Below are positions 1,665-19,824 of a stretch of DNA of 24,872 nucleotides, piece after piece; the stretch's first letter is position 1; each line of letters opens with the position of its first letter. The stretch comes from a virus (Duplodnaviria > Heunggongvirae > Uroviricota > Caudoviricetes), in the IMG/VR virus record IMGVR_UViG_2737471862_000008, positions 1 through 24,872 of that record; one strand, written 5' to 3'. Made by a program: the position numbers and the translations under genes. The notes beneath the pieces are model-generated. The model did not search any database and had not been told where the DNA came from. It saw only the letters and a program-made list of their open reading frames with translations.

Positions 1665-2565
1665 CCGTTCCCCCGTTGGTCACGCTCCACTGAGTACATG
1701 ATGCCGCCTGCGTTTTGTTCAGGACCACATCAGCCAGCGGTGAAGCCAGCTCCACACGTTGAACACCCTCAACATGCAGCGCGGCAAAAATAGCACTACG
1801 GCGAATATCCCGACCGAGCCGCGTCTGACTGGCGATGTACCTCTGCAGGCTGACTTTTGCCGCTGCCATTACCGGCTCTGCTTCCGGTCCCGGATAAAGA
1901 AAAATGGTAGCTTCCACACGGTACGGGATGATTTCTGCGCTGCGAACCGTCAGACGGTCAGCCACCGGGCGGACGTTCTCACTGTTCAGGGCTTTCTCCA
2001 CCACATCCAGCAAGTCTTTTTCTGCTGTTCCGTCGCCTTCACGACTCAGGACAGTCAGTACCACCTCTGCAGGTGCCGGACTGGTTGCACTGGCATCCGC
2101 CACCCGACCGTCGGCGCTTCGGGCATGAAATTCATAAGCGGCAGTTGGCCCCGCAACAGAAAGCCCTTCAAAGGCTGCAGGCACACGCAGGCGTAACGCT
2201 TCATCGCTTTCCATCACAGCCGCAACGGGTGGCACAGCGTCATTATCAGCAGGCGTCACCGTCAGGCGTTTCACGTTGTAGTTGGCAGCGAGCTGGTCAA
2301 GATCGCCGCCCATCGCGTAAGCCACCATCACAGCCTGCGCGGCTTCGTTAATGCGCTGGCGCAGAAGCAACTCACGGTAAGCGTTCTCCTGCAGCAATTT
2401 GGTGACGGGTTCAGATTCCAGTTCCAGCGTGCGGATCACGGCTTCCTGCTCATCTTTCGGATGAAGCACAACAAATTCGGCCTTGCGTTCGGCAAGCAGC
2501 GTCTCAAAGTCCGGCACATCGACAATCTGCGGCGCAGGCAACTGCGAAAGGTCAATCACTGCCAT
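1657..2565 (-). CDS. J: Baseplate assembly protein J
   Basis: Track ORF 1657..2604 trimmed to the internal ATG (MAVIDLSQLPAP...) preceded by AGGAG. This gives 302 aa, the same length as P2 gpJ, and the C-terminal ...VTNGGTDE resembles gpJ. Confidence 0.88.
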   Translation of the reverse strand: MAVIDLSQLPAPQIVDVPDFETLLAERKAEFVVLHPKDEQEAVIRTLELESEPVTKLLQENAYRELLLRQRINEAAQAVMVAYAMGGDLDQLAANYNVKRLTVTPADNDAVPPVAAVMESDEALRLRVPAAFEGLSVAGPTAAYEFHARSADGRVADASATSPAPAEVVLTVLSREGDGTAEKDLLDVVEKALNSENVRPVADRLTVRSAEIIPYRVEATIFLYPGPEAEPVMAAAKVSLQRYIASQTRLGRDIRRSAIFAALHVEGVQRVELASPLADVVLNKTQAASCTQWSVTNGGTDE

Positions 2566-2911
2566 TCTCTGCTCCTGTTGATACGGAAAGGGAAACAGGC
2601 ACACCGTTATTACGCCGCCCGGTCAGCCCCACCACCATTGAACCGTCAAAATTGCTTTTAATGGTGATGGAATCCAGCGTCAGCCGTGGCTCCCAGCGAC
2701 TCAGCGCCACATACACTGCCGACATGACCTGCAGGCGTAATGCCGGATTTTGTGGCTGGTCTATCAGTGTCGACAGCAGGGAACCATATTCACGACGGGC
2801 AATGCGGCAACCCTGCGGTGTCAGTAGAATGTCCCGCACCGACTGACGCAGATGGTCAATATCAGTAATGGCTTTACCGCTGGTATTGTTCATCCCGATA
2901 TAAAGCGTCAT
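2552..2911 (-). CDS. W: Baseplate wedge protein W (gp25-like)
   Basis: 119 aa with the gpW-like motif RREYGSLLSTLIDQPQNPALRLQ, in the P2 order V-W-J. Confidence 0.85.
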   Translation of the reverse strand: MTLYIGMNNTSGKAITDIDHLRQSVRDILLTPQGCRIARREYGSLLSTLIDQPQNPALRLQVMSAVYVALSRWEPRLTLDSITIKSNFDGSMVVGLTGRRNNGVPVSLSVSTGAENGSD

Positions 2912-3486
2912 ACCGGGCCTCCGGTTGTATCGCCGCCTTTCAGGACGCCAGTATGCTGATGCGCATCAACCACGATCCCGTTAGAACTCATCGCTCCGCC
3001 GCCCTGGGTAACGCCACCATTGATCACCACTTCGCTGTTAATGCGCGTGCGGTCAGCCTCCAGTACAAACTCACTGGTTTTCATGGTGATGTTGTCAGCG
3101 GCCTCAATGACCATTGATTTGATGCCTCTGACATACCAGCGCCCGGTGGCGGGTTCGTATTCAAACCAGCCACCGTCAGGATGTTCTGTCACGCAGGCGT
3201 CCGCCGACGTCGACGGTGGCGCGAACTGATTCGAATAGATGGCGGGCAGCGCAAACGCGGTTTCCAGATTGCCGCCCATGCTCAGCACCACCACCTGCTC
3301 ATCTGGCGACGGGCACCACCATGTACGGGCACCACCGGCGCGTAACGTCAGCCAGTTAATCCAGTTGGTTTCAAGCTCGCCTACCTTCACCCGGCACAGC
3401 CATTTGTTCCGGTCCACTTCGGTCACAATGCCGGTGCGGATCAGATTGGTGATAAGGCGCATAATTTCTGTGAGTTGTGCGTTCAT
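2908..3486 (-). CDS. V: Baseplate spike/hub protein V
   Basis: Track ORF 2908..3501 trimmed to MNAQLTEIMRLITNLIRTGIVTEV, which aligns with the P2 gpV N-terminus. The C-terminal glycine-rich HTG...GG tail is typical of gpV. The alternative start at 3501 cannot be excluded. Confidence 0.82.
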   Translation of the reverse strand: MNAQLTEIMRLITNLIRTGIVTEVDRNKWLCRVKVGELETNWINWLTLRAGGARTWWCPSPDEQVVVLSMGGNLETAFALPAIYSNQFAPPSTSADACVTEHPDGGWFEYEPATGRWYVRGIKSMVIEAADNITMKTSEFVLEADRTRINSEVVINGGVTQGGGAMSSNGIVVDAHQHTGVLKGGDTTGGPV

Positions 3487-3518
3487 GGTTGCAGTTTGCA
3501 TGAAATCAAAAGAAAATA

Positions 3519-5387
3519 GTGATTTTCAAATTGTATGAAGGGTCTTACAATCCAATGAATTACAATGAAGAGCTAACCTCATATCTTAATTATTTAGTGG
3601 ATCTTGAAAAACCCCCTAATTTCGCAGTAATGATTGACGGCGAATGGGGAAGCGGGAAAACATGGTTTGTCCGTAAATTAATGAATGAAGAATCACTAAA
3701 AAGGGAAGTTAAGCCATTAATGATCTCATTATATGGAATAAAATCCACCGAACAAATTGACGAAATAATTTTCAAGCAAATGCATCCCTTCCTTTCATCT
3801 AAAGGCATGTTGCTTGCTGGCACACTAACTAAGGCACTAATTAAAGGCACACTTAAGATTGATTTAAGTGATTCATTCGTTACAAGTGTAGAGGGCTCCC
3901 CAGAACTACCCAACGTAAGCATTAAAGACTTTTACTACTCACCAGAAAACACCATATTGATATTTGATGATCTTGAACGCTGCGAATTAGATTGGAATTC
4001 TATATTTGGTTATATAAATAATTTCGTTGAAGAAAAAGAATGCAAGGTTTTGATTATCGCCAATGAGAGAGAAATATTAAACCCCGCTAGAAATAAAAAT
4101 CATGATGATATTTATTTAGATGCAAAAGAAAAAGTTATAGGTATAACTTTCAAATATCAACCTCAACATTCTCACGCCTACGAATATTTTCTAAAAAATA
4201 TAACTAGCGAACTCAACACCATTCTGAACATAAAAAATATTGAGAGCTTACTCACTCTTTCAGAGTGTAATAACATTAGATTAATTGAAAGGCAAATTTC
4301 TTTTTTTGAAAGAATATTCAAAATATTACCAGCACAGTTTCAGCAAAATTCAGATTTGACACTCAGATTATATCAATTACATTTTATACTCTATTTTGAA
4401 TCTAATAAAATAAAACGAACCGTTTCTGACTTGTTAACATATAAAATAGATGATGATAATAAATACACATCCAATTTAATTGAAAAATATGGTACAACTT
4501 ATTTGTCAAATTTAATCTTAGACGAGGATACCTGGATCGATATAATTGACAATCAGAAAATCAATCAAGAAAAAATAATATCTGAATTAATAACATTTGT
4601 CAGTGTTTCTAATAAAACAATTGAACCATGGACACAACTTTGGAATTATGATCGATTAAAATACACAGAATTTGAGGAAAATTACAATTCAACACTTCAT
4701 ACGCTTATTAATTTTGAAATATTGAACGAGCATGTTCTTAAGCATATTTACGGATTATTACTTCATTTATCCAGAGAACATATAAAACCCATCAACGAAC
4801 ACTATTTAACAAACTTAGCCCACTCTGCTGTTGATATTTTAGCAGAAAAAGGAATGATACAAACTAGTTATGAAATTTTTGATGAAGACATTAAGGATGA
4901 GCGATGGGGAGGATTAACTTTTCATTGCAAAGAAACTAGGGAATTCAAGGAGCTTGTTAATTACATAGAACAAAAGAAAAATGTATTAATTGCATATCAA
5001 CTTAGCCAAGATGCTCAAAAGATATTCAAATTAATACAGTCCGGAAATCATGAATATTACGCACATCTAAATTTCAACAACAAAGATATTTATTCATTTC
5101 ACGACAAACCAGTTCTTTATTTTGGTGATGCTGAACAACTAACAAAAATGCTGATAGACTCAACCGAAATGCATTTCTTTGGCTATGCTATAAAAAACCG
5201 ATACAACAACACCCATTATCTAAAAGAGCTTTCTGCAGAGCGTTTTTTCCACCGCGAGCTAATTAGAAAGCTAATTGAAAAGAAAACTCAAATAAACTCA
5301 AATATATTATCATTACAAATCGATGAGCTCATAAATGATTGTTTAACTCCCGCAATAGATAAATTAAAGCAAAGCATTGAAAATTAA
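3519..5387 (+). CDS. KAP-family-like P-loop NTPase; AT-rich cargo gene inserted between S and V
   Basis: 622-aa ORF (start may instead be the ATG at 3555). Walker A reads GEWGSGKT, matching the KAP signature GxWGxGK[ST]; Walker B reads ILIFDDLERC, matching hhhhDDLDRC. Base composition is conspicuously AT-rich compared with the flanking tail genes. P2 has no gene at this position. Confidence 0.7.
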   Translation: MIFKLYEGSYNPMNYNEELTSYLNYLVDLEKPPNFAVMIDGEWGSGKTWFVRKLMNEESLKREVKPLMISLYGIKSTEQIDEIIFKQMHPFLSSKGMLLAGTLTKALIKGTLKIDLSDSFVTSVEGSPELPNVSIKDFYYSPENTILIFDDLERCELDWNSIFGYINNFVEEKECKVLIIANEREILNPARNKNHDDIYLDAKEKVIGITFKYQPQHSHAYEYFLKNITSELNTILNIKNIESLLTLSECNNIRLIERQISFFERIFKILPAQFQQNSDLTLRLYQLHFILYFESNKIKRTVSDLLTYKIDDDNKYTSNLIEKYGTTYLSNLILDEDTWIDIIDNQKINQEKIISELITFVSVSNKTIEPWTQLWNYDRLKYTEFEENYNSTLHTLINFEILNEHVLKHIYGLLLHLSREHIKPINEHYLTNLAHSAVDILAEKGMIQTSYEIFDEDIKDERWGGLTFHCKETREFKELVNYIEQKKNVLIAYQLSQDAQKIFKLIQSGNHEYYAHLNFNNKDIYSFHDKPVLYFGDAEQLTKMLIDSTEMHFFGYAIKNRYNNTHYLKELSAERFFHRELIRKLIEKKTQINSNILSLQIDELINDCLTPAIDKLKQSIEN

Positions 5388-6316: not shown

Positions 6317-6548
6317 TAATCATGTCCACTTTGTCTGCACAGACCGCCCAGGCGGCCTCCGTTTCATCCAGCAACGCGTTCAGATCACCGTTAGTGCGCG
6401 GCGCTGCCTGATCCAGCCGACACGGCGTCACTCGTGGACAACCACTGACGGTAAGCTGCACCTCCGGTGAGTGTGGGGCGTTCCCGCAGCCGGATAATGT
6501 CAGCAGGCAAAGGAGTATCAGCCCAGCGGCGTAAATTCTCGTTCTCAC
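6258..6548 (-). CDS. lysC: Outer-membrane lipoprotein spanin (LysC/Rz1-like)
   Basis: 96 aa with a signal peptide and lipobox (LLTLSGC). Overlaps the 3' part of lysB in another frame, as Rz1 does with Rz. Proline-rich. Confidence 0.6.
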   Translation of the reverse strand: MRTRIYAAGLILLCLLTLSGCGNAPHSPEVQLTVSGCPRVTPCRLDQAAPRTNGDLNALLDETEAAWAVCADKVDMIIACQERTSEQTTIPAPRPQ

Positions 6549-6819
6549 GTTTCAGTTCCTCGATCCGGTGTTGTCGTTGTCTCAGCAGCGCGCTGGTCTG
6601 TTCTGCTTCGGCATAGAGCCGAGCCTGCTCCCGGTTATTGGTTTCAGTCAAAATGGACAGGCTGATAAGCTGGCTGTTGCTCTTTGCCAGTGCCTGGCTT
6701 TTGCTCTGCAGCTCGTCTGCCTGCGTGCTGATGGTCTGGCTGGCATCAGCCAGCCGCCACGTCTGCCAGCCCAGCGCCGCCAGTAATAACGCCAGCACAA
6801 CCAGCAGCAACCGGTTCAT
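6391..6819 (-). CDS. lysB: Inner-membrane spanin (LysB/Rz-like)
   Basis: 142 aa with an N-terminal transmembrane segment (LLLVVLALLLAALGW) followed by a charged coiled-coil-like region. In the P2 position after lysA. Confidence 0.7.
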   Translation of the reverse strand: MNRLLLVVLALLLAALGWQTWRLADASQTISTQADELQSKSQALAKSNSQLISLSILTETNNREQARLYAEAEQTSALLRQRQHRIEELKRENENLRRWADTPLPADIIRLRERPTLTGGAAYRQWLSTSDAVSAGSGSAAH

Positions 6820-7193
6820 GCTGCTACCTGTTGCGCCATCTGATTACGGGTGATCCAGAAGGCAATAACGGTCAGTAGATAAAAGACCAGGGTAATAGCC
6901 CACCCCGTCCAGGCGAGACTGACGACAATCAGCAATCGCATCATCCAGCTGATAAATACGTTTTCTTTTCGGGTAATTGTCTTCAGCAAAGATGCCCTCA
7001 ACTCCTGCCAGAGCGGGCCATTCTTAATTAACGCAGCCAGTGCTACCGGAATTACCGCCCATGTCAGCAAACAGGCTACCCAAACGCCGGACGCTGACAG
7101 TACCGGAAAAATCCCCTGCGGATACACCATTGCTTCGATTAACAGCGCCATCCATAACATCAGAAACAGCCCGCTGATTAATTTCTTTTTCAT
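6816..7193 (-). CDS. lysA: LysA-like membrane protein (lysis timing or antiholin-like)
   Basis: Track ORF 6816..7265 trimmed to MKKKLISGLFLMLW..., preceded by GGGAG and starting 1 nt after the K stop. Several hydrophobic segments. Confidence 0.65.
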   Translation of the reverse strand: MKKKLISGLFLMLWMALLIEAMVYPQGIFPVLSASGVWVACLLTWAVIPVALAALIKNGPLWQELRASLLKTITRKENVFISWMMRLLIVVSLAWTGWAITLVFYLLTVIAFWITRNQMAQQVAA

Positions 7194-11374: not shown

Positions 11375-13141
11375 ATGAACACCACACTGACACCCACAGA
11401 TCTCGATCCCCGTCGGCAGGCCATGCTGCTGTACTTTCAGGGATACCGCGTCGCCCGCATTGCTGAAATGCTGGGCGAGAAAGTTGCAACCGTTCACAGC
11501 TGGAAAAAACGCGACAAGTGGGGTGACTATGGGCCGCTGGATCAGATGCAGCTCACCACCGCCGCACGCTACTGCCAGCTCATTATGAAGGAGCACAAAG
11601 AAGGGAAAGATTTCAAAGAAATTGACCTGCTGGCACGCCAGTCTGAGCGCCACGCGCGGATCGGCAAGTTTAACAATGGCGGCAATGAAGCCGACTTAAA
11701 CCCTAACGTTGCCAACCGCAACAAAGGCCCACGTCGTCAGCCGGAAAAGAATGTTTTCACCGATGAACAGATTGAGAAACTGGAAGAAATCTTCCATTCC
11801 TCCATGTTCAACTACCAGCGCCACTGGTGGGAAGCCGGAAAAACCAACCGCATCCGCAACCTGCTGAAGTCACGCCAGATCGGCGCGACCTTTTACTTTG
11901 CCCGTGAAGCCCTGATTGACGCCCTGCTGACCGGACGTAACCAGATTTTCCTTTCCGCCAGCAAGGCACAGGCCCACGTCTTTAAGCAGTACATCATCGA
12001 CTTCGCCAAAGAAGTGGAAGTGGAGCTGAAAGGCGATCCGATGGTGCTTCCCAACGGGGCCACGCTTTACTTCCTCGGCACCAATGCCCGCACGGCCCAG
12101 AGTTACCACGGCAACCTGTATCTGGATGAATATTTCTGGATACCGAAATTCCAGGAGCTGCGCAAAGTGGCTTCCGGTATGGCTATTCACAAAAAATGGC
12201 GACAAACCTATTTTTCCACGCCATCCAGCCTGACACACAGTGCTTATCCGTTCTGGTCCGGTGCGCTGTTTAACCGTGGGCGCAACAAAGCCGATAAGGT
12301 GGACATCGACCTGTCCCACAACAATCTGGCCCCCGGCTTGCTGTGCGCAGACGGGCAATACCGCCAGATAGTCACCGTGGAAGATGCGGTGCGCGGCGGC
12401 TGTAACCTGTTCGACCTCGACCAGCTACGCATGGAGTACAGCCCGGACGAATATCAGAACCTGCTGATGTGCGAGTTCGTGGACGATCTCGCGTCCGTGT
12501 TCCCGCTCAGCGAACTGCAGGCGTGCATGGTGGACAGTTGGGAAGTCTGGACCGACTTTCATGCACTGGCCCTGCGCCCGTTTGGCTGGCGCGAGGTGTG
12601 GATCGGTTATGACCCGGCAAAAGGTACGCAGAACGGCGACAGCGCCGGATGCGTGGTGGTGGCACCGCCAGCCGTGCCAGGCGGTAAGTTTCGCATTCTT
12701 GAGCGCCACCAGTGGCGCGGGATGGACTTCCGCGCCCAGGCTGATGCAATCAAAAAACTGACCGAGCAGTACAACGTGACCTATATCGGCATCGACTCGA
12801 CAGGCGTCGGTCACGGGGTTTATGAGAACGTGAAAGCGTTCTTTCCTGCCGTCCGGGAGTTTGTCTACAACCCCAACGTTAAAAACGCTCTGGTACTCAA
12901 GGCCTACGACATTATCAGCCACCGCCGTCTGGAGTTTGACGCCGGACACACCGACATAGCGCAGTCATTTATGGCAATCCGTCGCGCCACCACCGCCAGT
13001 GGCAACCGCCCGACCTATGAAGCCAGCCGCAGCGAAGAAGCCAGCCACGCCGATCTGGCCTGGGCAACGATGCACGCACTGTTTAACGAACCGCTGCAGG
13101 GCGAATCCGCCAATACCAGCAATATTGTGGAGATTTTTTGA
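11375..13141 (+). CDS. P: Terminase large (ATPase) subunit P
   Basis: 588 aa (P2 gpP is about 590 aa). Divergent from O; stop overlaps the Q start. Confidence 0.92.
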   Translation: MNTTLTPTDLDPRRQAMLLYFQGYRVARIAEMLGEKVATVHSWKKRDKWGDYGPLDQMQLTTAARYCQLIMKEHKEGKDFKEIDLLARQSERHARIGKFNNGGNEADLNPNVANRNKGPRRQPEKNVFTDEQIEKLEEIFHSSMFNYQRHWWEAGKTNRIRNLLKSRQIGATFYFAREALIDALLTGRNQIFLSASKAQAHVFKQYIIDFAKEVEVELKGDPMVLPNGATLYFLGTNARTAQSYHGNLYLDEYFWIPKFQELRKVASGMAIHKKWRQTYFSTPSSLTHSAYPFWSGALFNRGRNKADKVDIDLSHNNLAPGLLCADGQYRQIVTVEDAVRGGCNLFDLDQLRMEYSPDEYQNLLMCEFVDDLASVFPLSELQACMVDSWEVWTDFHALALRPFGWREVWIGYDPAKGTQNGDSAGCVVVAPPAVPGGKFRILERHQWRGMDFRAQADAIKKLTEQYNVTYIGIDSTGVGHGVYENVKAFFPAVREFVYNPNVKNALVLKAYDIISHRRLEFDAGHTDIAQSFMAIRRATTASGNRPTYEASRSEEASHADLAWATMHALFNEPLQGESANTSNIVEIF

Positions 13142-14178
13142 TGGGAAAGAGTAAGAAAAACCGCGCTGCGGCGACGAACCAGATTCAGCATAAAAGCCAG
13201 ACTTCAGCCGAAGCATTCAGCTTTGGCGATCCCGTTCCTGTTCTGGACCGCCGAGAATTACTGGACTATGTGGAATGCGTACAGATGGACCGTTGGTATG
13301 AGCCGCCCGTCAGCTTTGACGGACTGGCGCGCACCTTCCGCGCTGCCGTGCATCACAGTTCCCCGATTGCAGTAAAGTGCAACATTCTGACCAGTACCTA
13401 TATCCCTCATCCTCTGCTCAGCCAGCAAGCTTTTTCACGTTTTGTGCAGGACTATCTGGTATTTGGTAACGCCTACCTGGAGAAACGCACGAACCGCTTC
13501 GGTGAAGTTATCGCCCTTGAGCCTGCACTGGCAAAATACATCCGACGCGGGTTAGACCTGGATACCTACTGGTTTGTGCAATACAGTATGACAACCCAGC
13601 CGTATCAGTTCACGAAAGGCAGCATTTTTCATCTGATGGAACCGGACATTAACCAGGAGATCTACGGCCTGCCCGGTTATCTTTCTGCCATTCCGTCAGC
13701 TCTGCTCAACGAGTCCGCCACGCTGTTCCGCCGCAAGTATTACATTAACGGCAGTCATGCAGGCTTCATCATGTACATGACCGATGCCGCGCAGAACCAG
13801 GAAGATGTGAACAACCTCCGCAATGCGATGAAAAGCGCCAAAGGTCCGGGTAACTTCCGCAATCTGTTTATGTACTCGCCTAATGGTAAAAAAGACGGAC
13901 TTCAGATTATCCCATTGTCAGAAGTCGCAGCGAAGGATGAATTTCTGAACATCAAGAACGTCAGCCGTGATGACATGATGGCAGCGCATCGTGTGCCACC
14001 ACAAATGATGGGAATAATGCCTAGCAATGTTGGGGGGTTTGGGGATGTGGAGAAGGCTAGTCTTGTATTTGTTCGCAATGAATTGATGCCACTACAGAAG
14101 CGACTACATGAACTAAACGAATGGGTGGGTGCAGAAGTAATACGTTTTGATGACTATGTTTTAGGTGTTCAGGAATAA
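13141..14178 (+). CDS. Q: Portal (capsid vertex) protein Q
   Basis: Track ORF starts at a TTG at 13138; the ATG at 13141 follows GGAG and overlaps the P stop (TGATG). About 345 aa, as P2 gpQ. Confidence 0.9.
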   Translation: MGKSKKNRAAATNQIQHKSQTSAEAFSFGDPVPVLDRRELLDYVECVQMDRWYEPPVSFDGLARTFRAAVHHSSPIAVKCNILTSTYIPHPLLSQQAFSRFVQDYLVFGNAYLEKRTNRFGEVIALEPALAKYIRRGLDLDTYWFVQYSMTTQPYQFTKGSIFHLMEPDINQEIYGLPGYLSAIPSALLNESATLFRRKYYINGSHAGFIMYMTDAAQNQEDVNNLRNAMKSAKGPGNFRNLFMYSPNGKKDGLQIIPLSEVAAKDEFLNIKNVSRDDMMAAHRVPPQMMGIMPSNVGGFGDVEKASLVFVRNELMPLQKRLHELNEWVGAEVIRFDDYVLGVQE

Positions 14179-14224: not shown

Positions 14225-14563
14225 TTAACAAACAGCGTATAAACCATCAAATCCAACGGAATGAACCTTTTTTGATGCTACTTCATTGCTACGGCGTTGG
14301 ATCACTTTTGCAATACTTTTTAAAATTGAAGGGGATGCATTGCGAACCTTAACCTGACTCAAAACTTTGGTTACACCGAATTTCACTACCAAAACACCAA
14401 AGATTTCATCAGAGTATGATTCTGAAATTGAATAAACACCGCTCAGGTCTAAATCTACGGTATACCCTTCTTTAATGAACCCTTCAATCTTGTGTCGTTG
14501 GGGGATAGCCTGATTGCGCGAAGCCAGGTCACCCTCGGGTAACTTGTATGCGATTTTGTTCAT
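14225..14563 (-). CDS. Small STAS-like (anti-sigma-antagonist-like) protein; second gene of a two-gene cargo operon
   Basis: 112 aa. Start overlaps the upstream gene's stop (TAATG) and follows GGAGGAG. The motif VDLDLSGVYSISESYSDEIFGVLVV resembles the STAS/DUF4325-type hLDhsGV..hssSFaDEhfG core. Recalled similarity, not computed. Confidence 0.5.
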   Translation of the reverse strand: MNKIAYKLPEGDLASRNQAIPQRHKIEGFIKEGYTVDLDLSGVYSISESYSDEIFGVLVVKFGVTKVLSQVKVRNASPSILKSIAKVIQRRSNEVASKKVHSVGFDGLYAVC

Positions 14564-15537
14564 TACTCTCCTCCTAACGCCCGCATTATTTCCATAAGCT
14601 GAGGGTCATTTTCTTCGCTATCTTTATCGACTGCCAGTTCATGAATCTTAAAACGGCAAGAAATTGCTACACCCGGCCATTCAGTACGTAATTCAGTATA
14701 GCTCACTTCATCACCTATTGCTTCTAAGCATACATTTCCTGAAGCCAGTTGCAATTCCCCATTATATGTTTTTATCAATTTCATCAAGTGATATAACCCA
14801 AGCCCTTGATGATTATTATCTTTTTCTTTGACCGAAACCCCGTGACCAAACACACTACCCCCAATAAAATCCTGGGGAAGTTGCTGTGCCCAATCATCCT
14901 GCAAATCAGCATGCTTAGATGAATGTCCCTCTTGAATACACCATGCGATCGCATCCTGGTGAGTCTCAATTCCGGGTATACCAGCTCGCCGCAATTCTCG
15001 GAGAAATCCTAACCCACAGTCCGCCAAAGAAAATTCTAAATAGTGCTCTTTTCTTTGTGTGTGGGGTACAGCCGAACGTTGTGCAAAAGAAAAACCCGTT
15101 GATTTTCCATGCGACCAAACGTTATCGTGAAGCTCACCTATAACATGTGTTAGATCTGTAAGTCCCTTGGGATAATCTCTCGGATCACGATCAGGGAATG
15201 TTAACTGCCTTACACAACTGTTAATACTACCAGTGGCAACGTCAACAGCTTCAACATTGGTTAATGCTGTAACCAAACTGTAATTTCTCCCAACATTTAC
15301 ACGTTCCTGTTGATACTGATCCTCGCCCCATAAAGCACCATGTAAATTGATAGCCCGCATATAGTCAGGGCATGACAAAACGCAGTTATCTTCGGTAATT
15401 TTGTGATGATTCACGTAAGCTGCTAAGACAGTGATAAAACCAGGATGCCAATGGTTGTTTGGCAATTGCAATTCATTAGTTTCCTTTTGATGAAACGCAG
15501 CGGTATGCACAATAGCGTCTTTTAATCCTAACCCCAT
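14563..15537 (-). CDS. GHKL-type (histidine-kinase/anti-sigma-kinase-like) ATPase with an N-terminal domain of unknown function
   Basis: 324 aa. Bergerat-fold motifs are visible: N-box GELHDNVWSHG, G1 box LADCGLGF, G2 box HQGLGLYHL. The first ~130 aa have no recognisable motif. Lower GC than the phage backbone. Confidence 0.6.
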   Translation of the reverse strand: MGLGLKDAIVHTAAFHQKETNELQLPNNHWHPGFITVLAAYVNHHKITEDNCVLSCPDYMRAINLHGALWGEDQYQQERVNVGRNYSLVTALTNVEAVDVATGSINSCVRQLTFPDRDPRDYPKGLTDLTHVIGELHDNVWSHGKSTGFSFAQRSAVPHTQRKEHYLEFSLADCGLGFLRELRRAGIPGIETHQDAIAWCIQEGHSSKHADLQDDWAQQLPQDFIGGSVFGHGVSVKEKDNNHQGLGLYHLMKLIKTYNGELQLASGNVCLEAIGDEVSYTELRTEWPGVAISCRFKIHELAVDKDSEENDPQLMEIMRALGGE

Positions 15538-15595: not shown

Positions 15596-15649
15596 AGATC
15601 CCGACACTCTTGAATCATACTAAATTAAGGCCTATACCACACAGCGCGC

Positions 15650-15672
15650 GCTCGTATCCCCGCCACGCCTGC
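15650..15672. other. cos-like sequence (candidate cohesive-end site of the phage genome)
   Basis: The minus-strand reading of 15658..15669 is GGCGTGGCGGGG. That equals the first 12 nt of the 19-nt cohesive end I recall for phage 186 (GGCGTGGCGGGGAAAGCAT); P2 has GGCGAGGCGGGG. The match decays after 12 nt. It sits in a GC-rich island between two AT-rich cargo modules. Confidence 0.4.
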
Positions 15673-15711
15673 CCGCTTTATGTAGCGGTTTTCATGCGCC
15701 TGCATGACATA

Positions 15712-15738
15712 AGCAAAATCCCGCCACTCCTGGCGGGC
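15712..15738 (-). terminator. Putative rho-independent terminator of the membrane-protein cassette
   Basis: Hairpin CCCGCCA-CTCC-TGGCGGG, followed on the minus strand by ATTTTGCTT, about 90 nt downstream of the 15830 stop. Confidence 0.4.
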
Positions 15739-15829
15739 CTCAGCTAAAACGATCCTCAAACGATCATGCGGATTCATGCGGCATAGACATGCACAATCTC
15801 CAAAGCGGGCATCGAGACTTTTTGGAAAC

Positions 15830-16441
15830 CTACGTAACCACAGTTAATGTGTGCATCCTGTCTCGAATTGCATCACACGTCTCATCAAAAAGCTTGGTGA
15901 TGGTTGTATGGTTCAACTCCGCCTCTTTCCAATAATTTTGCCCGTCAAATTCTGGATCGCTATGCTTAAACGATATTGACTCTGAAAGGCATTCCTTCCG
16001 GAAACGGTCCAAGATTATATAAACCTCTGGTGAGATGAACGGTTTGTTAGATTCAACACTTGTAACAAAAGTGTTAAATGCATCAGAAAAAACTTTCAAC
16101 CTTCTAAATTTTCTCTCTTCAAATGGTTCGTTGGGGTCAACATGATCCAGCGCAGGCCTCAGCTTAAGCACGCTTTCTCTGGTTTCAAACATCGAATTCC
16201 AAATGAGACTATATGCTGATAACTCCTTATCAAAATACGCTTTCGTTACATAAACAGAATTGTCTAACTTAGCCTTTATTCTTTCATTAGTTGCACTCAG
16301 TTGTGATTGAAATTCAGCAATATCTTTGTTTAGCCGCGACTTATATCTTTCTAAATAAACTTTCCCGATCCAAACAAATATGCCAGATGCAACAAAAGAC
16401 ACCCCACCCAACGAAGCCAGAACTTTAAAGACTAAATCCAT
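15830..16441 (-). CDS. Membrane-anchored protein of unknown function (single N-terminal TM helix plus ~175-aa soluble domain); single-gene cargo cassette
   Basis: 203 aa. N-terminal hydrophobic helix VLASLGGVSFVASGIFVWIG, then a charged coiled-coil-like region. RBS GGTGGGGG precedes the ATG. AT-rich. Lies where P2-family phages carry variable genes (tin/old position). Confidence 0.55.
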   Translation of the reverse strand: MDLVFKVLASLGGVSFVASGIFVWIGKVYLERYKSRLNKDIAEFQSQLSATNERIKAKLDNSVYVTKAYFDKELSAYSLIWNSMFETRESVLKLRPALDHVDPNEPFEERKFRRLKVFSDAFNTFVTSVESNKPFISPEVYIILDRFRKECLSESISFKHSDPEFDGQNYWKEAELNHTTITKLFDETCDAIRDRMHTLTVVT

Positions 16442-16470
16442 TGCGCCCCCACCTGCAAAAATAGTATTCC

Positions 16471-16497
16471 ATTATAAGCTAATACATTTTTAATCAA
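16471..16497 (-). promoter_or_regulatory. Candidate sigma70 promoter of the membrane-protein cassette
   Basis: On the minus strand: TTGATT, 15 nt, TATAAT, about 30 nt upstream of the ATG at 16441. Spacer is short; by-eye prediction. Confidence 0.3.
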
Positions 16498-16705
16498 ACA
16501 GGGGATAATTCGCGTCAACCTCATCACTTCTCTGCTCTACCCTAGTGACTTCCATCAAAAACCCCAGGCCGTCATATAGCGAAACGGGGAATTCCAGCTC
16601 AAGCCAGAAGCAGTCTTCATAGATGCGGCCCAACCAAAAACCTCCGCCACACTCCTTTGGGCGTTGAAAGAAAACCCAGTCGCCAAGGGTTAAACGTTCC
16701 AGCAC
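16490..16705 (-). CDS. Hypothetical small protein (possibly a gene remnant)
   Basis: 71-aa ORF with no recognisable motif and an uncertain start. Its 3' end overlaps the predicted promoter of the next cassette. Confidence 0.25.
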   Translation of the reverse strand: MLERLTLGDWVFFQRPKECGGGFWLGRIYEDCFWLELEFPVSLYDGLGFLMEVTRVEQRSDEVDANYPLFD

Positions 16706-16823
16706 CTAGCCCCGATAAATAATCTGGTGATTACTGTCTTTTTTACCCATGGCTAACGCCTCGCTACTCTCGTTGTTCAACCTTGCTGACGTCAGATTCA
16801 AGTTCTTACATCAGGAACGTTCC

Positions 16824-17057
16824 TTAGTGCAGCCAGCTGTCGTCTTCCCAAACCTGTTGCATAATTTCCATCACCCGCTTTTTGTCTTCATCAAGCTTTA
16901 AGCCACTCAGCTCAACGCCGTTTGCCGACCCTTTACGGATGCGGATAGCGGTCTTGGGATAGATGGGTTGCAGGTTGCGGTAAAGCTCGGACTCCAGAGC
17001 GTCCAGGGTAGACTGGCTAATCTTCTGCTCTTTATCGATCATTATTTCAATGCGCAT
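16824..17057 (-). CDS. DinI-family protein (DinI / Tum C-terminal-domain-like)
   Basis: Track ORF trimmed to MRIEIMIDKEQ...: 77 aa. Alignable by eye with E. coli DinI (MRIEVTIAK...IDAL.GEL.RR.Q..FP......VR........V.G..K.DK.R...ILQETWE..D.W). Confidence 0.75.
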   Translation of the reverse strand: MRIEIMIDKEQKISQSTLDALESELYRNLQPIYPKTAIRIRKGSANGVELSGLKLDEDKKRVMEIMQQVWEDDSWLH

Positions 17058-17067
17058 AAAAGTCACC

Positions 17068-17256
17068 TCAGCTGATGACATCCATTGAGCGGTTGTATTC
17101 GTGGCTTCTGATTTTTGCCATGAGTTCATCAGTCAATTCAGAAACCCACTGCAGGGCCAGCCCCTTCTCTTCATCACTACACTCACTAGCCGCTACAAGC
17201 TTAAGAAAAAAATCAATGCGCTGGAGCTTCAAAGACTCCAAAAAATAGTCCTGCAT
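17068..17256 (-). CDS. Small protein upstream of the DinI-like ORF; candidate N-terminal part of a Tum-like antirepressor
   Basis: Track ORF trimmed to MQDYFLESLKLQ... (62 aa), which follows a strong RBS AGGAGGAAAG. In a different frame from the DinI-like ORF. Downstream of a LexA box. Confidence 0.5.
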   Translation of the reverse strand: MQDYFLESLKLQRIDFFLKLVAASECSDEEKGLALQWVSELTDELMAKIRSHEYNRSMDVIS

Positions 17257-17297
17257 CTTTCCTCCTATGACACCGCAAACAATACTGTACAGATAAC

Positions 17298-17340
17298 CAC
17301 TGTTTATATTTACAGTATATGATAATCTTACTGATGTAAA
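17298..17340 (-). promoter_or_regulatory. SOS promoter: LexA box overlapping the -10 of a sigma70 promoter
   Basis: Minus strand reads TTTACA (-35), 17 nt, TACTGT (-10). The LexA box TACTGTAAATATAAACAGTG (CTGT-N8-ACAG; consensus TACTGTATATATATACAGTA) covers the -10, about 45 nt upstream of the 17256 ATG. Confidence 0.6.
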
Positions 17341-17409
17341 ACGTTTTTTTACGTTCATCAGCCTGATATGCCTGGTATTATTAAGAGCACGAATTGTTAA
17401 CCCGCGTAA

Positions 17410-19824
17410 TTAATACAGGTTCCGCCACTTATCATCTTCCTGCAAACGCTGGTTCCGATAGAAGACACGCAGGCCTGCTCCTGACGGAATACTGCCGCCG
17501 CGAAGGAGTAAATCGACCTCTTTCTCGCTGCCATCAAATCCTCTGGACTTCAGTTCATAGACGAGCTGCTGTCGTTGATGGTCTGTAATTCGCTGTTTGT
17601 AGTCTCTACGCCGTTTCGGTTTCACCAGGCGTAACCTTGCAGCCAGTTCCCGGCGCTCTTTTTTGTTCATACTGTGCAGGTAATCGTGCAACTCCTTGTC
17701 ATCCATGTGGGTAATGTCCGTTCTGGTATCCCCATCAGCTGATTTGTCTTTCCCTTGTTGGTTCAAATTTTCAGCAAGGGGACAGTTATTGCCACGAGTC
17801 CAAGGGGCGCAAGCGCCCTGGTCGGCTGCCGCCTCCTGAACGTCAACGGCCTTACGAACCATTTTCCACTTCACGGCATGAGTGCAGATCTTGCCCTCTG
17901 CAATAGGTGACCAGATGCCATAAATACGAATGCCGTGATCGCCATAGGCGGTCGGCTCTTCGTTGATTTCATAAGCAGTTCTGATGAGGTGATATTTGCG
18001 GGGAACCAGTACGCCACCCTGCTTCATGATGTAGGTGGCAAAACAACCAGCATCAGCAGCAGCCAGAATGGCATCAAGGCGCGGGTTATCCAGTACCGGC
18101 GCACCTGCTTTTTTGTCCCCCTGTTGCCTTGCCGCCTGACCAGCCAGCAATCGCAGTTCACGGTAAGCCTGACGCCCCGGAATGCCAAAGAAGCGGAATT
18201 GCTGAACACGATGCAGAGACGCCCAGGCATTAACGTATTCAGCATTATCACGCAGGGATTTCCCCGTTTCCTTGCTGATCTCGCCAGCCAGACCACGCCC
18301 GTCAATGTTCTTACTGATGTATTTCGCGATGTAGCTTGTTGGCGTACCTTTGCGCGGGTTAATCAACTCAGACTTAAAGCGCGGCCCAGTGTTATTGCCC
18401 AGCTCCTCGCGGTCTTCACGGATGGCAAACTTACGCAGTAATGCAGTGATGGTGCGGCGGTCTTTTTTGCGCATAAAACACAACAGGTGCCAGTGAACTG
18501 TACCGTCATGATGCGGCTCAGCCACCCGCACGCCATACCACCGCAATCCGGCTTTGTGCATCGCCTTACGAAATGCAGCAAACATGCCGACCAGATAATC
18601 ACTGCTTTGTCTTACCGTCGCATTTGTCCAGGTTGGGTTGGGCCTGCCGTTATTTAGCGTGGAATGGAAACGTGACGGACAGGTGATGGTGTAGAAAACG
18701 GCGCAGTCACCGCGCATTTCCGCGATAAGCTCCAGACCTTTAACACAGGCCATCATCTCATTGCGGCGATGCGCTGGGTTGCTGCTGCTGGCGTTTACCA
18801 CATCCTCCATGTCCAGCGTGTCGCCGTCTTCGTTCACCAGTTCATGAGAACGGAAAAACTCCAGCGACTTACGGCGCTGCTCACGTTTATGCATCACGGC
18901 TTCATAGCTGACATAAGGAGATGCTTTTTTGCTGACAAGGCAGACTGCACGCAACTGCTCTTCCCGCCATTCGCAACGCATCTTCCATAATTTCCGATAC
19001 CACCAGTCGGCGCACAACATACGCGCCAGCGAACCCGGAATGAGTTCATAGGGCACGGGTTTACGGCGGTTTCTTTTCCGACGGAGTTGCTCAAACGCAG
19101 GCGGGATGACATCCAGACGCAGGGTTTCCGCTGCCACCCTTTCCCATGTATTGCGGATTTCTTCTGGCTTAACGTCATCGGTGGCATACAAATCGCCACA
19201 AGCGGCATCAAGGCACATACTCATATGCGCAGCTACCAGGGTGGACAGGCGTTTCACCTGATCCTGACTCATTTCAGGCAGGATCAGCAGGCCGTCCAGC
19301 CCTTCATGGCTTGCCATAAAGCGAAAAGATGCAGATAGCTGACTGTCGCGTACATGCTCCAGTCGTTCCAGACATGGCTTAATCGTCTCACGTAAATAGC
19401 GGGAATAAGCCTTTGGCCTGCCCAGGCTGCTGAAGTATTCAATACGTTGCATCAGCGGCTTGCTGATATGGGAAGGCTGGGCGTTGACGTCCGCCAGAAT
19501 GACCATATCCGGATTAAAACGCTGCTGCTCATGCGCCAGCTTTGCCCGACTAATGAGCTTATCCTGTTCCATTTCGCGCTGGACAGGATCACGGGATTCA
19601 TTAAAGAAATAACGCTCCCAGACCTGATCACTCAGCGCCTCACGGCGCAGCTGTTCCTGCTCGTTATCGGCAGCGTACAGAGTGATCAGGTTTGAAAGCG
19701 TAGAAACCGGCGCAACTTCCACCGGGTCCAGATAAGGGTTAATGGCCTTTTTCGGGCTGTTCCATGAGAACGATGCGGCAGCTTCGTTAAAGCCGCAGCA
19801 GTTGTTCATATCGGCATGACTCAT
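17410..19824 (-). CDS. A: Replication initiation protein A (rolling-circle nicking endonuclease)
   Basis: 804-aa ORF in the P2/186 position of gene A. Start ATG overlaps the Dam stop (ATGA). Confidence 0.88.

Follow-up and report, generated by a model that had tools for sequence, protein, structure and literature searches.

An acquired gene for a predicted membrane-anchored protein beside cos in a P2-like prophage: a candidate anti-phage moron

What does a single gene lodged beside the cohesive-end site (cos) of a prophage do? The question is raised by a 203-amino-acid (203-aa) open reading frame (ORF) at 15830..16441, minus strand, with an ATG start, in the virus record IMGVR_UViG_2737471862_000008. 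The stretch analysed (positions 1 to 24,872 of that record; 24,872 nucleotides, hereafter the window) is a segment of a P2-like (Peduoviridae) prophage of Felsduovirus/Elveevirus-like type. The original prediction described a stand-alone cassette for a membrane-anchored protein in the position of P2 tin and old, and proposed an exclusion or abortive infection effector; the observation is confirmed and the interpretation finds partial support. The gene counts as an uncharacterised moron within a known hotspot for defence genes, already entered as ‘hypothetical’ in two published tables, and it is horizontally acquired and mobile.

Position, distribution and expression of the gene

The gene lies between gpA (17410-19824) and gpQ (13138-14178), adjoining cos on the tin/old side, and hence within the cos-adjacent gpA-gpQ region that is a documented cargo hotspot of P2 (Rousset et al., 2022, PMC9122126; PMC13586616). 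The placement proposed for it, between an SOS operon and cos in the tin/old interval, holds on both counts: an exact LexA box and a DinI gene (PF06183) stand upstream with cos at 15651-15669 on the other side, and in P2 tin and old sit in the matching interval, between A/orf91 and cosR. Table S5 of Rousset et al. (2022, PMC9122126) includes an identical protein, WP_020218871, as ‘hypothetical’.

The locus is variable, not invariant, across related prophages. Among 5,426 complete E. coli genomes, the flank was matched in about 1,275 and the gene was present in 41; the relative vB_EcoM-813R9 has an empty site, where the flanks (15794|16752) meet, separated by 6 bp; and both Fels-2 and Klebsiella phage ST15-OXA48phi14.1 hold unrelated genes in the equivalent slot on the A side of cos. 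Presence, absence and replacement are thus all found among close prophages. The nearest phage on record, Escherichia phage Cartapus (97.5% DNA identity over 15702-17450), is carried as a prophage by the adherent-invasive E. coli (AIEC) strain LF82; among 50,697 phage records it provided the only close copy of the gene. Copies of the gene and of a small ORF upstream of it are also carried by Enterobacter, and searches with family alignments found no relatives of the locus in species-representative genomes or in IMG/VR. As predicted, the gene is AT-rich, with a GC content of 38.7% (local profile 36-42%), where the window as a whole has 49.9% and neighbouring core genes have 53-60%; in base composition, as in having its own promoter, it has the marks of a moron. 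It is a real gene rather than a chance ORF, given the purifying selection acting on it (dN/dS, the ratio of nonsynonymous to synonymous substitution rates, of 0.11 at dS 0.86 against the Enterobacter orthologue) and the 916 sequence clusters of its family.

The cassette and its signals are as follows.

15795-16751, no strand: inserted cassette, relative to vB_EcoM-813R9
16441..15830, minus strand: target gene, 203 aa
16471..16497, minus strand: putative sigma-70 promoter (from its sequence, its retention in the Enterobacter copies and an RNA sequencing (RNA-seq) step-up at the LF82 orthologue)
16454..16449, minus strand: Shine-Dalgarno sequence AGGTGG, 7 nt 5' of the ATG
15720..15737, minus strand: GC-rich terminator-like hairpin with a 7 bp stem, 4-nt loop and weak U tract, within the conserved cos flank
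16490..16750, minus strand: small ORF of the phrog_2100 family, with an in-frame TAG at 16708..16706 that leaves a 71-codon GTG-start remnant (16705..16490)

The -10 element is, as foreseen, a perfect TATAAT (16476..16471), and the anticipated ribosome site is present as AGGTGG. The best -35 element, TTGATT (16497..16492), overlaps the stop codon of the small ORF and is separated from the -10 by a spacer of 15 nt; a consensus scanner requires 16-18 nt and consequently did not call this promoter. The TTGATT-15 nt-TATAAT arrangement is common to the E. coli and Enterobacter copies, as is AGGT, the core of the ribosome site. Downstream, 92 nt past the stop codon, CCCGCCAGGAGUGGCGGG followed by AUUUUGCUUA forms the hairpin at 15737..15720 (minus strand), which is present in the minimum free energy fold. 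A hairpin is thus present 3' of the gene, where a terminator was expected, but its U tract is weak and it was assigned to the backbone rather than to the cassette, because the block that contains it together with cos (15644-15794) is common to relatives lacking the gene. The description as a stand-alone cassette likewise stands in part: the orthologue is expressed autonomously, but the cassette also holds the decaying small ORF, of 86 codons when intact.

Expression data are available for the LF82 orthologue, LF82_789 (CARTA_47; chromosome 2759532-2760143; RefSeq WP_000366628.1), whose product is 96.6% identical to the window protein. In the RNA-seq study of Misson et al. (2023, PMC9928086), LF82_789 is one of two listed Cartapus morons, with expression in lysogeny broth (LB) 7-fold over the Cartapus prophage background (their Table 1). 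The S1 Table of the same paper gives the log2 values below, with two replicates per condition, for LB, for Dulbecco's modified Eagle's medium (DMEM) at 6 h and for macrophages at 6 h.

LF82_789 (the 203-aa gene): LB 5.4/5.6; DMEM 8.6/8.5; macrophage 10.5/10.5
Small ORF directly upstream: LB 3.3/3.1; DMEM 2.8/2.6; macrophage 7.5/7.7
DinI: LB 2.9/3.1; DMEM 3.6/3.8; macrophage 9.2/9.3
gpA: LB about 2.5; DMEM about 2.8; macrophage about 2.8

In DMEM the signal steps up approximately 60-fold from the small ORF to LF82_789, a rise that calls for a promoter located at the conserved TTGATT-15-TATAAT or close to it. The gene is, then, a moron with its own promoter that is transcribed in the lysogen, as seen for the 96.6% identical orthologue and not for this exact strain. 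Past cos, a DUF4145 gene of LF82 has a profile similar to that of LF82_789, and read-through beyond the hairpin across cos is possible.

Architecture and family of the protein

The protein is divided as follows.

Residues 7-25: transmembrane (TM) helix
Residues 27-60, approximately: coiled-coil stalk
Residues 67-198: four-helix bundle
Residues 63-65/199-201: beta pair

Hydropathy bore out the proposal of one N-terminal TM helix, with residues 7-25 alone reaching a Kyte-Doolittle 19-mer mean of 2.0 and all other segments at or below 0.6. Across an alignment of family members (n=77), the best hydrophobic segment exceeds 1.6 in 73/77 and is N-terminal in 76/77. Lysine and arginine residues (K/R) around the helix average 0.44 before it and 3.4 after it, with more on the C-terminal side in 75/77. 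Under the positive-inside rule this bias predicts an N-out/C-in topology with a cytoplasmic soluble domain, which argues against a periplasmic injection-blocker model. The TM helix is itself rich in small residues (G12, G13, G20/A and G26) and is followed by a K/R-rich juxtamembrane segment.

The AlphaFold2 model, built on the 77-sequence alignment, has a predicted local distance difference test score (pLDDT) of 93.7 and a predicted template modelling score (pTM) of 0.73. In the model a single long helix (12-60) spans the TM segment and the stalk, and leads into a bundle of four helices (67-92, 107-131, 138-160 and 168-198) closed by the two-stranded sheet 63-65/199-201. A heptad seam runs family-wide through positions 33, 41, 44, 48, 55 and 59, with Asn or Leu/Ile at position 52. 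Stalk length ranges from 32 to 63 residues, with some members exceeding this. In the monomer model the stalk is unpaired; since the heptads find no packing surface there, the protein is probably a parallel oligomer. Invariant residues are E73, P134 and R195, and F70, W81, R95, P96, F135, E154, I192 and R193 are nearly so. Most of the conserved residues lie near the ends of bundle helices or in connecting loops, and no recognisable catalytic motif was found among those of the family.

The protein matches phrog_26391 across its full length, and no structural or replication homology was found in Pfam, NCBIfam, PADLOC or PDB searches. A profile search of 1.84 billion representatives returned 916 clusters at E<=1e-3, 386 of them at E<=1e-10. 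The family hits listed are mostly 180-230 aa, the shorter ones resembling fragments. Hosts include Planctomycetota, Nitrospira, Myxococcota, Bacteroidota and a Clostridium phage, among others. In Pseudomonas phage Riah the member adjoins a cI repressor (hhalign probability 99.7%), in Clostridium phage Maintenon it sits between terminase genes, in Corallococcus it lies inside a prophage-like region, and other distant members adjoin integrases, serine recombinases or transposases. Defence genes appear beside some members: one adjoins a type IIG restriction-modification gene and Abi_alpha/PDC-S47, the Alteromonas member is two genes from a PD-Lambda-1 homologue, and members on metagenomic contigs lie near mad2/mad3, reverse transcriptase (RT), MqsRA, BrnT and DUF4411 genes, as well as some housekeeping genes. 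A degenerate motif scan of genome contigs yielded only 5 short contigs from metagenome-assembled genomes. No partner gene was conserved across the family loci examined. The family thus looks like stand-alone cargo of mobile and variable DNA, and its association with defence and toxin-antitoxin genes is modest rather than overwhelming.

In Candidatus Kuenenia a 201-aa ORF (6329-6934 in three extracted loci) lies directly upstream of the family member and may be a tandem paralogue.

Several candidate clues were followed and set aside. Domain fusions gave none, the extra length of longer members consisting only of longer stalks or unannotated tails. In many E. coli genomes the orthologues WP_020218871.1 and WP_000366630.1 bear the RefSeq/PGAP name ‘valyl-tRNA synthetase’. 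The only match in that direction is to the PF10458 coiled-coil arm at residues 31-68, which is sub-threshold (E=0.009; 16.7 bits, cut-off 25.9), and the catalytic and anticodon-binding domains of class I aminoacyl-tRNA synthetases are absent; judged by its sequence, the name is a spreading annotation artefact. A HEPN assignment fails because R193-x-R195-x-H197 departs from the Rx4-6H pattern and, in the family, H197 is unconserved. The lead from BFVD, HP1 orf1 (P51700), gave an hhalign probability of 0.4%, and the A-side protein of Fels-2, STM2726, is not homologous.

Candidate functions and neighbouring cargo

We rank an anti-phage role first, giving a little less than an even chance to exclusion or abortive infection exerted from the inner face of the membrane. 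The ranking is based on position, lysogen expression, distribution on mobile elements and the high success of tested loci of unknown function from such hotspots; among randomly chosen unknown P4 hotspot loci, 6/8 were protective (PMC13586616). On this reading the gene is an acquired autonomous moron of the cos-proximal hotspot, expressed by the lysogen. Its product would expose a short acidic N-terminus outward, cross the membrane once and continue through the K/R segment into a heptad stalk of variable length, which would present the four-helix bundle, probably as a parallel oligomer, on the cytoplasmic side of the inner membrane. Such a protein, which lacks an enzymatic motif, would most likely take part in phage-phage conflict as a membrane-tethered binder or sensor, either hindering an infecting phage at the inner membrane (exclusion) or acting as a switch that perturbs the membrane (abortive infection). 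The analysis and the literature show that the gene is real and establish its position, its variability, the autonomous expression of the orthologue, the architecture and the breadth of the family; we infer topology and oligomerisation from sequence and model, and we also infer the anti-phage role.

The backbone and the cargo across cos from the gene bear on this reading.

11375-13141, plus strand: gpP, terminase gene
13138-14178, plus strand: gpQ, portal gene
14563..14225, minus strand: 112-aa DUF4325/STAS-like gene
15537..14563, minus strand: 324-aa HATPase_c-like gene
15651-15669, minus strand: cos cohesive-end sequence GGCGTGGCGGGGATACGAG (P2 counterpart GGCGAGGCGGGGAAAGCAC), by alignment to the annotated P2 cosL/cosR
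17057..16824, minus strand: DinI-family gene (PF06183, E=3.8e-24)
17256..17068, minus strand: orf62, a 62-codon ORF
16824..17315, minus strand: SOS operon of the backbone (LexA box, orf62 and DinI)
19824..17410, minus strand: gpA

As in P2, a small hairpin precedes cos. In 28 loci that carry the gene, the stretch from cos to gpQ (the Q side) falls into 15 unrelated clusters. The Q-side cargo proteins tested mostly matched PADLOC models or Pfam families of defence type: 8/10 matched PADLOC models, namely retron RT II-A, AbiU, ShosA/DprA-PRTase, PDC-M03A, PDC-S33, PDC-S49, PDC-S59 and a PD-T7-4-like DUF4145 protein; other Q-side cargo carries OLD-like, AAA_21+RloB and Schlafen-like domains by Pfam. 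The combination found in the window, of the A-side gene with a HATPase/STAS cargo on the Q side, occurs in 0/41 of the gene-bearing genomes (from the 5,426 complete E. coli), where matches start at 15637-15645; the HATPase/STAS cargo is present in 19-25 others. The slots flanking cos are therefore exchanged independently, since 15 Q-side cargoes pair with the gene and the pairing of the window is seen in none of the 5,426 genomes.

The window's own Q-side cargo is a two-gene unit at 14225-15537 (minus strand), in a stretch from cos to gpQ that in P2 holds just 186 bp. The 324-aa HATPase_c-like protein (phrog_3364, weak PF02518) is encoded by a gene that overlaps the 112-aa gene by ATGA, and the 112-aa DUF4325/STAS-like protein (PF14213, E=9e-10) has a further match to part of the PADLOC DrmA model (E=2e-6). 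The pair corresponds to no complete known system; in a slot that otherwise holds retrons, AbiU and ShosTA, it is a candidate defence pair.

Several points weigh against an anti-phage role. For the window protein and 77 family members nothing scored above threshold in Pfam, NCBIfam, PADLOC or PDB; PADLOC-DB 2.0 gave 0 families for the window protein and scattered single weak matches among the 77 (best E=1e-4). The modelled fold is a generic four-helix bundle that gives no clue to function, and defence neighbours were seen at a minority of the approximately 25 distant loci examined. The A-side cargo of relatives, at 2700-3431 of the extracted locus in Fels-2 (STM2726, 243 aa) and 2425-3704 in Klebsiella phage ST15-OXA48phi14.1 (gp13-15), has no PADLOC match, the Q-side cargoes of these two phages being AbiU and bSEFIR; the A-side slot may thus be enriched in a different functional class from the Q side. 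Only 15-32% of unknown P2 proteins were scored defensive by machine learning (PMC13586616), and the P2 hotspot also holds partition systems and a cytolethal distending toxin (PMC9122126). Literature searches by accession and locus tag gave the LF82 moron table and the locus list of Rousset et al., and no anti-phage phenotype. Furthermore, the strong induction in DMEM and macrophages could point to a role in host physiology.

A wider proposal, which is possible but rather doubtful, is that the gene may be the founder of a widespread, unrecognised single-gene anti-phage family. Its members would be enzyme-free, oligomeric, membrane-tethered proteins with a coiled coil and a four-helix bundle at the cytoplasmic side of the inner membrane; they would recognise a phage component at the site of entry or near it, and either block establishment of the genome or change conformation so as to permeabilise the membrane. 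This class of mechanism is not represented in PADLOC-DB 2.0 (2023), the sole defence catalogue searched.

Of the other explanations, the one that survives best, and that still appears unlikely, is lysogenic conversion: the protein would be a membrane scaffold that tunes an envelope, stress or division process and benefits the lysogen, for example in macrophages, with no direct action on phages. An N-terminal anchor followed by a cytoplasmic helical domain is common in bacterial membrane scaffolds, defence models are unmatched, and the LF82 orthologue rises from log2 5.5 in LB through 8.6 in DMEM to 10.5 in macrophages. The SOS operon is induced in those macrophage samples, however, and read-through from it may account for part of the signal; the family, moreover, occurs in highly diverse hosts, in every case on mobile or variable DNA and in none within a conserved host operon.

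That operon also bears on a second, still less likely explanation, in which the gene would act on induction as an accessory of the phage cycle, with an anti-defence or anti-satellite role, countering host defences or P4-type satellites or tuning membrane events before lysis. The LexA box CTGTTTATATTTACAG at 17300-17315, of the pattern CTGT-N8-ACAG contained in TACTGTAAATATAAACAGT, lies 5' of orf62-DinI and is the sole exact match within the window; the 203-aa gene is directly 3' of the LexA-controlled orf62-DinI and co-oriented with it, and no strong terminator was detected between them. All genes of this stretch rise together in macrophages, and no defence signatures are present in the A-side cargo of relatives. 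Against this, transcription of the gene is already seen in the uninduced lysogen, where the upstream genes and gpA are at background, approximately 97% of related E. coli prophages lack it, and homologues occur in non-phage integrative elements and beside transposases. As to the operon itself, the orf62-DinI orthologues of LF82 are strongly up in macrophages with gpA silent (PMC9928086 S1 Table), a rise that fits the LexA box, and it looks like an SOS-controlled operon running apart from the lytic genes.

A two-gene toxin-antitoxin-like module, with the 203-aa gene as toxin or addiction partner of the small ORF, is highly improbable and largely refuted: the two co-occur in all 41 E. coli genomes that carry the gene and in the Enterobacter copies, but the small ORF is decaying and, in LF82, stays at background while the 203-aa gene is expressed. 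The Cartapus/LF82 version is intact and the window version is cut by a CAG-to-TAG change; in Enterobacter the ATG is lost and a frameshift and a stop have been gained. Over 29 loci the small ORF is truncated in 12 (by a nonsense codon here and at 11 others), degraded in 10, with loss of start or frame, and intact in 7, whereas the 203-aa gene is intact in 29/29. Moreover, P22-like, SSU5-like, Serratia, Cronobacter and other P2-like phages carry phrog_2100 members but lack the 203-aa gene. The small ORF is dispensable and is not a partner of the 203-aa gene. More generally, phrog_2100 genes are small early-region genes that are widespread in P22-like, SSU5-like and P2-like phages.

P2-like prophages are a major and quickly reshuffled store of E. 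coli immunity genes, and about one-fifth of them have only unknown genes in the hotspot. Among such unknowns the 203-aa gene is unusually well supported, by selection, by a promoter acting at the orthologue in a clinical lysogen (AIEC LF82) and by a confident model; it is a good candidate for experiment, though not in itself a surprise. The family comprises at least 916 sequence clusters in many phyla and is in no domain database, so that a function assigned to it would extend to thousands of proteins now called ‘hypothetical’ or, in some cases wrongly, ‘valyl-tRNA synthetase’. If the gene is defensive, it adds an enzyme-free membrane-tethered mechanism; if it is not, the A-side slot by cos holds a functional class distinct from that of the defence-rich Q-side slot.

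Comparison with known systems

The bundle resembles the 4HB_MCP-type sensor domains of histidine kinases and chemoreceptors (PDB 4k0d, 3i9w, 6s18 and 1lih) in fold only, with a sequence identity of 3-8%. Talin, catenin, ApoE and de novo designed bundles score nearly as well, and we therefore judge the resemblance to be generic. Those sensor domains are periplasmic, lie between two TM helices and have a cytoplasmic output, whereas the 203-aa protein has one TM helix, a predicted cytoplasmic bundle and no output domain. LemA family proteins (PF04011) are approximately 190 aa long, with an N-terminal TM helix and a helical bundle. They resemble the 203-aa protein in size and overall architecture, but PF04011 was not reported at the thresholds used, either for the window protein or in the summary for the 77 members, and the protein is not a detectable LemA member.

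The membrane morons P22 SieA and SieB, HK97 gp15, lambda RexB, lactococcal Sie2009 and AbiP are, like the 203-aa gene, small, lysogen-expressed from their own promoter, atypical in composition and membrane-anchored. AbiP in particular is reported to be N-terminally anchored with a cytoplasmic domain. They differ in that the 203-aa protein matches none of them in Pfam or PADLOC, and no counterpart to its four-helix-bundle head was identified among them.

From P2 tin and old the gene differs in orientation, old-tin being transcribed from cos towards A and the 203-aa gene from A towards cos. P2 Tin (NP_046797) has no homology to the 203-aa protein (hhalign probability 0.2%), and, in contrast to Old and the OLD nucleases, the 203-aa protein is all-helical, without ATPase or TOPRIM Pfam domains. 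Anti-phage activity has been demonstrated for Tin and Old, whereas the 203-aa gene is a candidate; what they share is the A-to-cos interval and the character of non-essential, variable cargo expressed from the prophage (PMC9122126).

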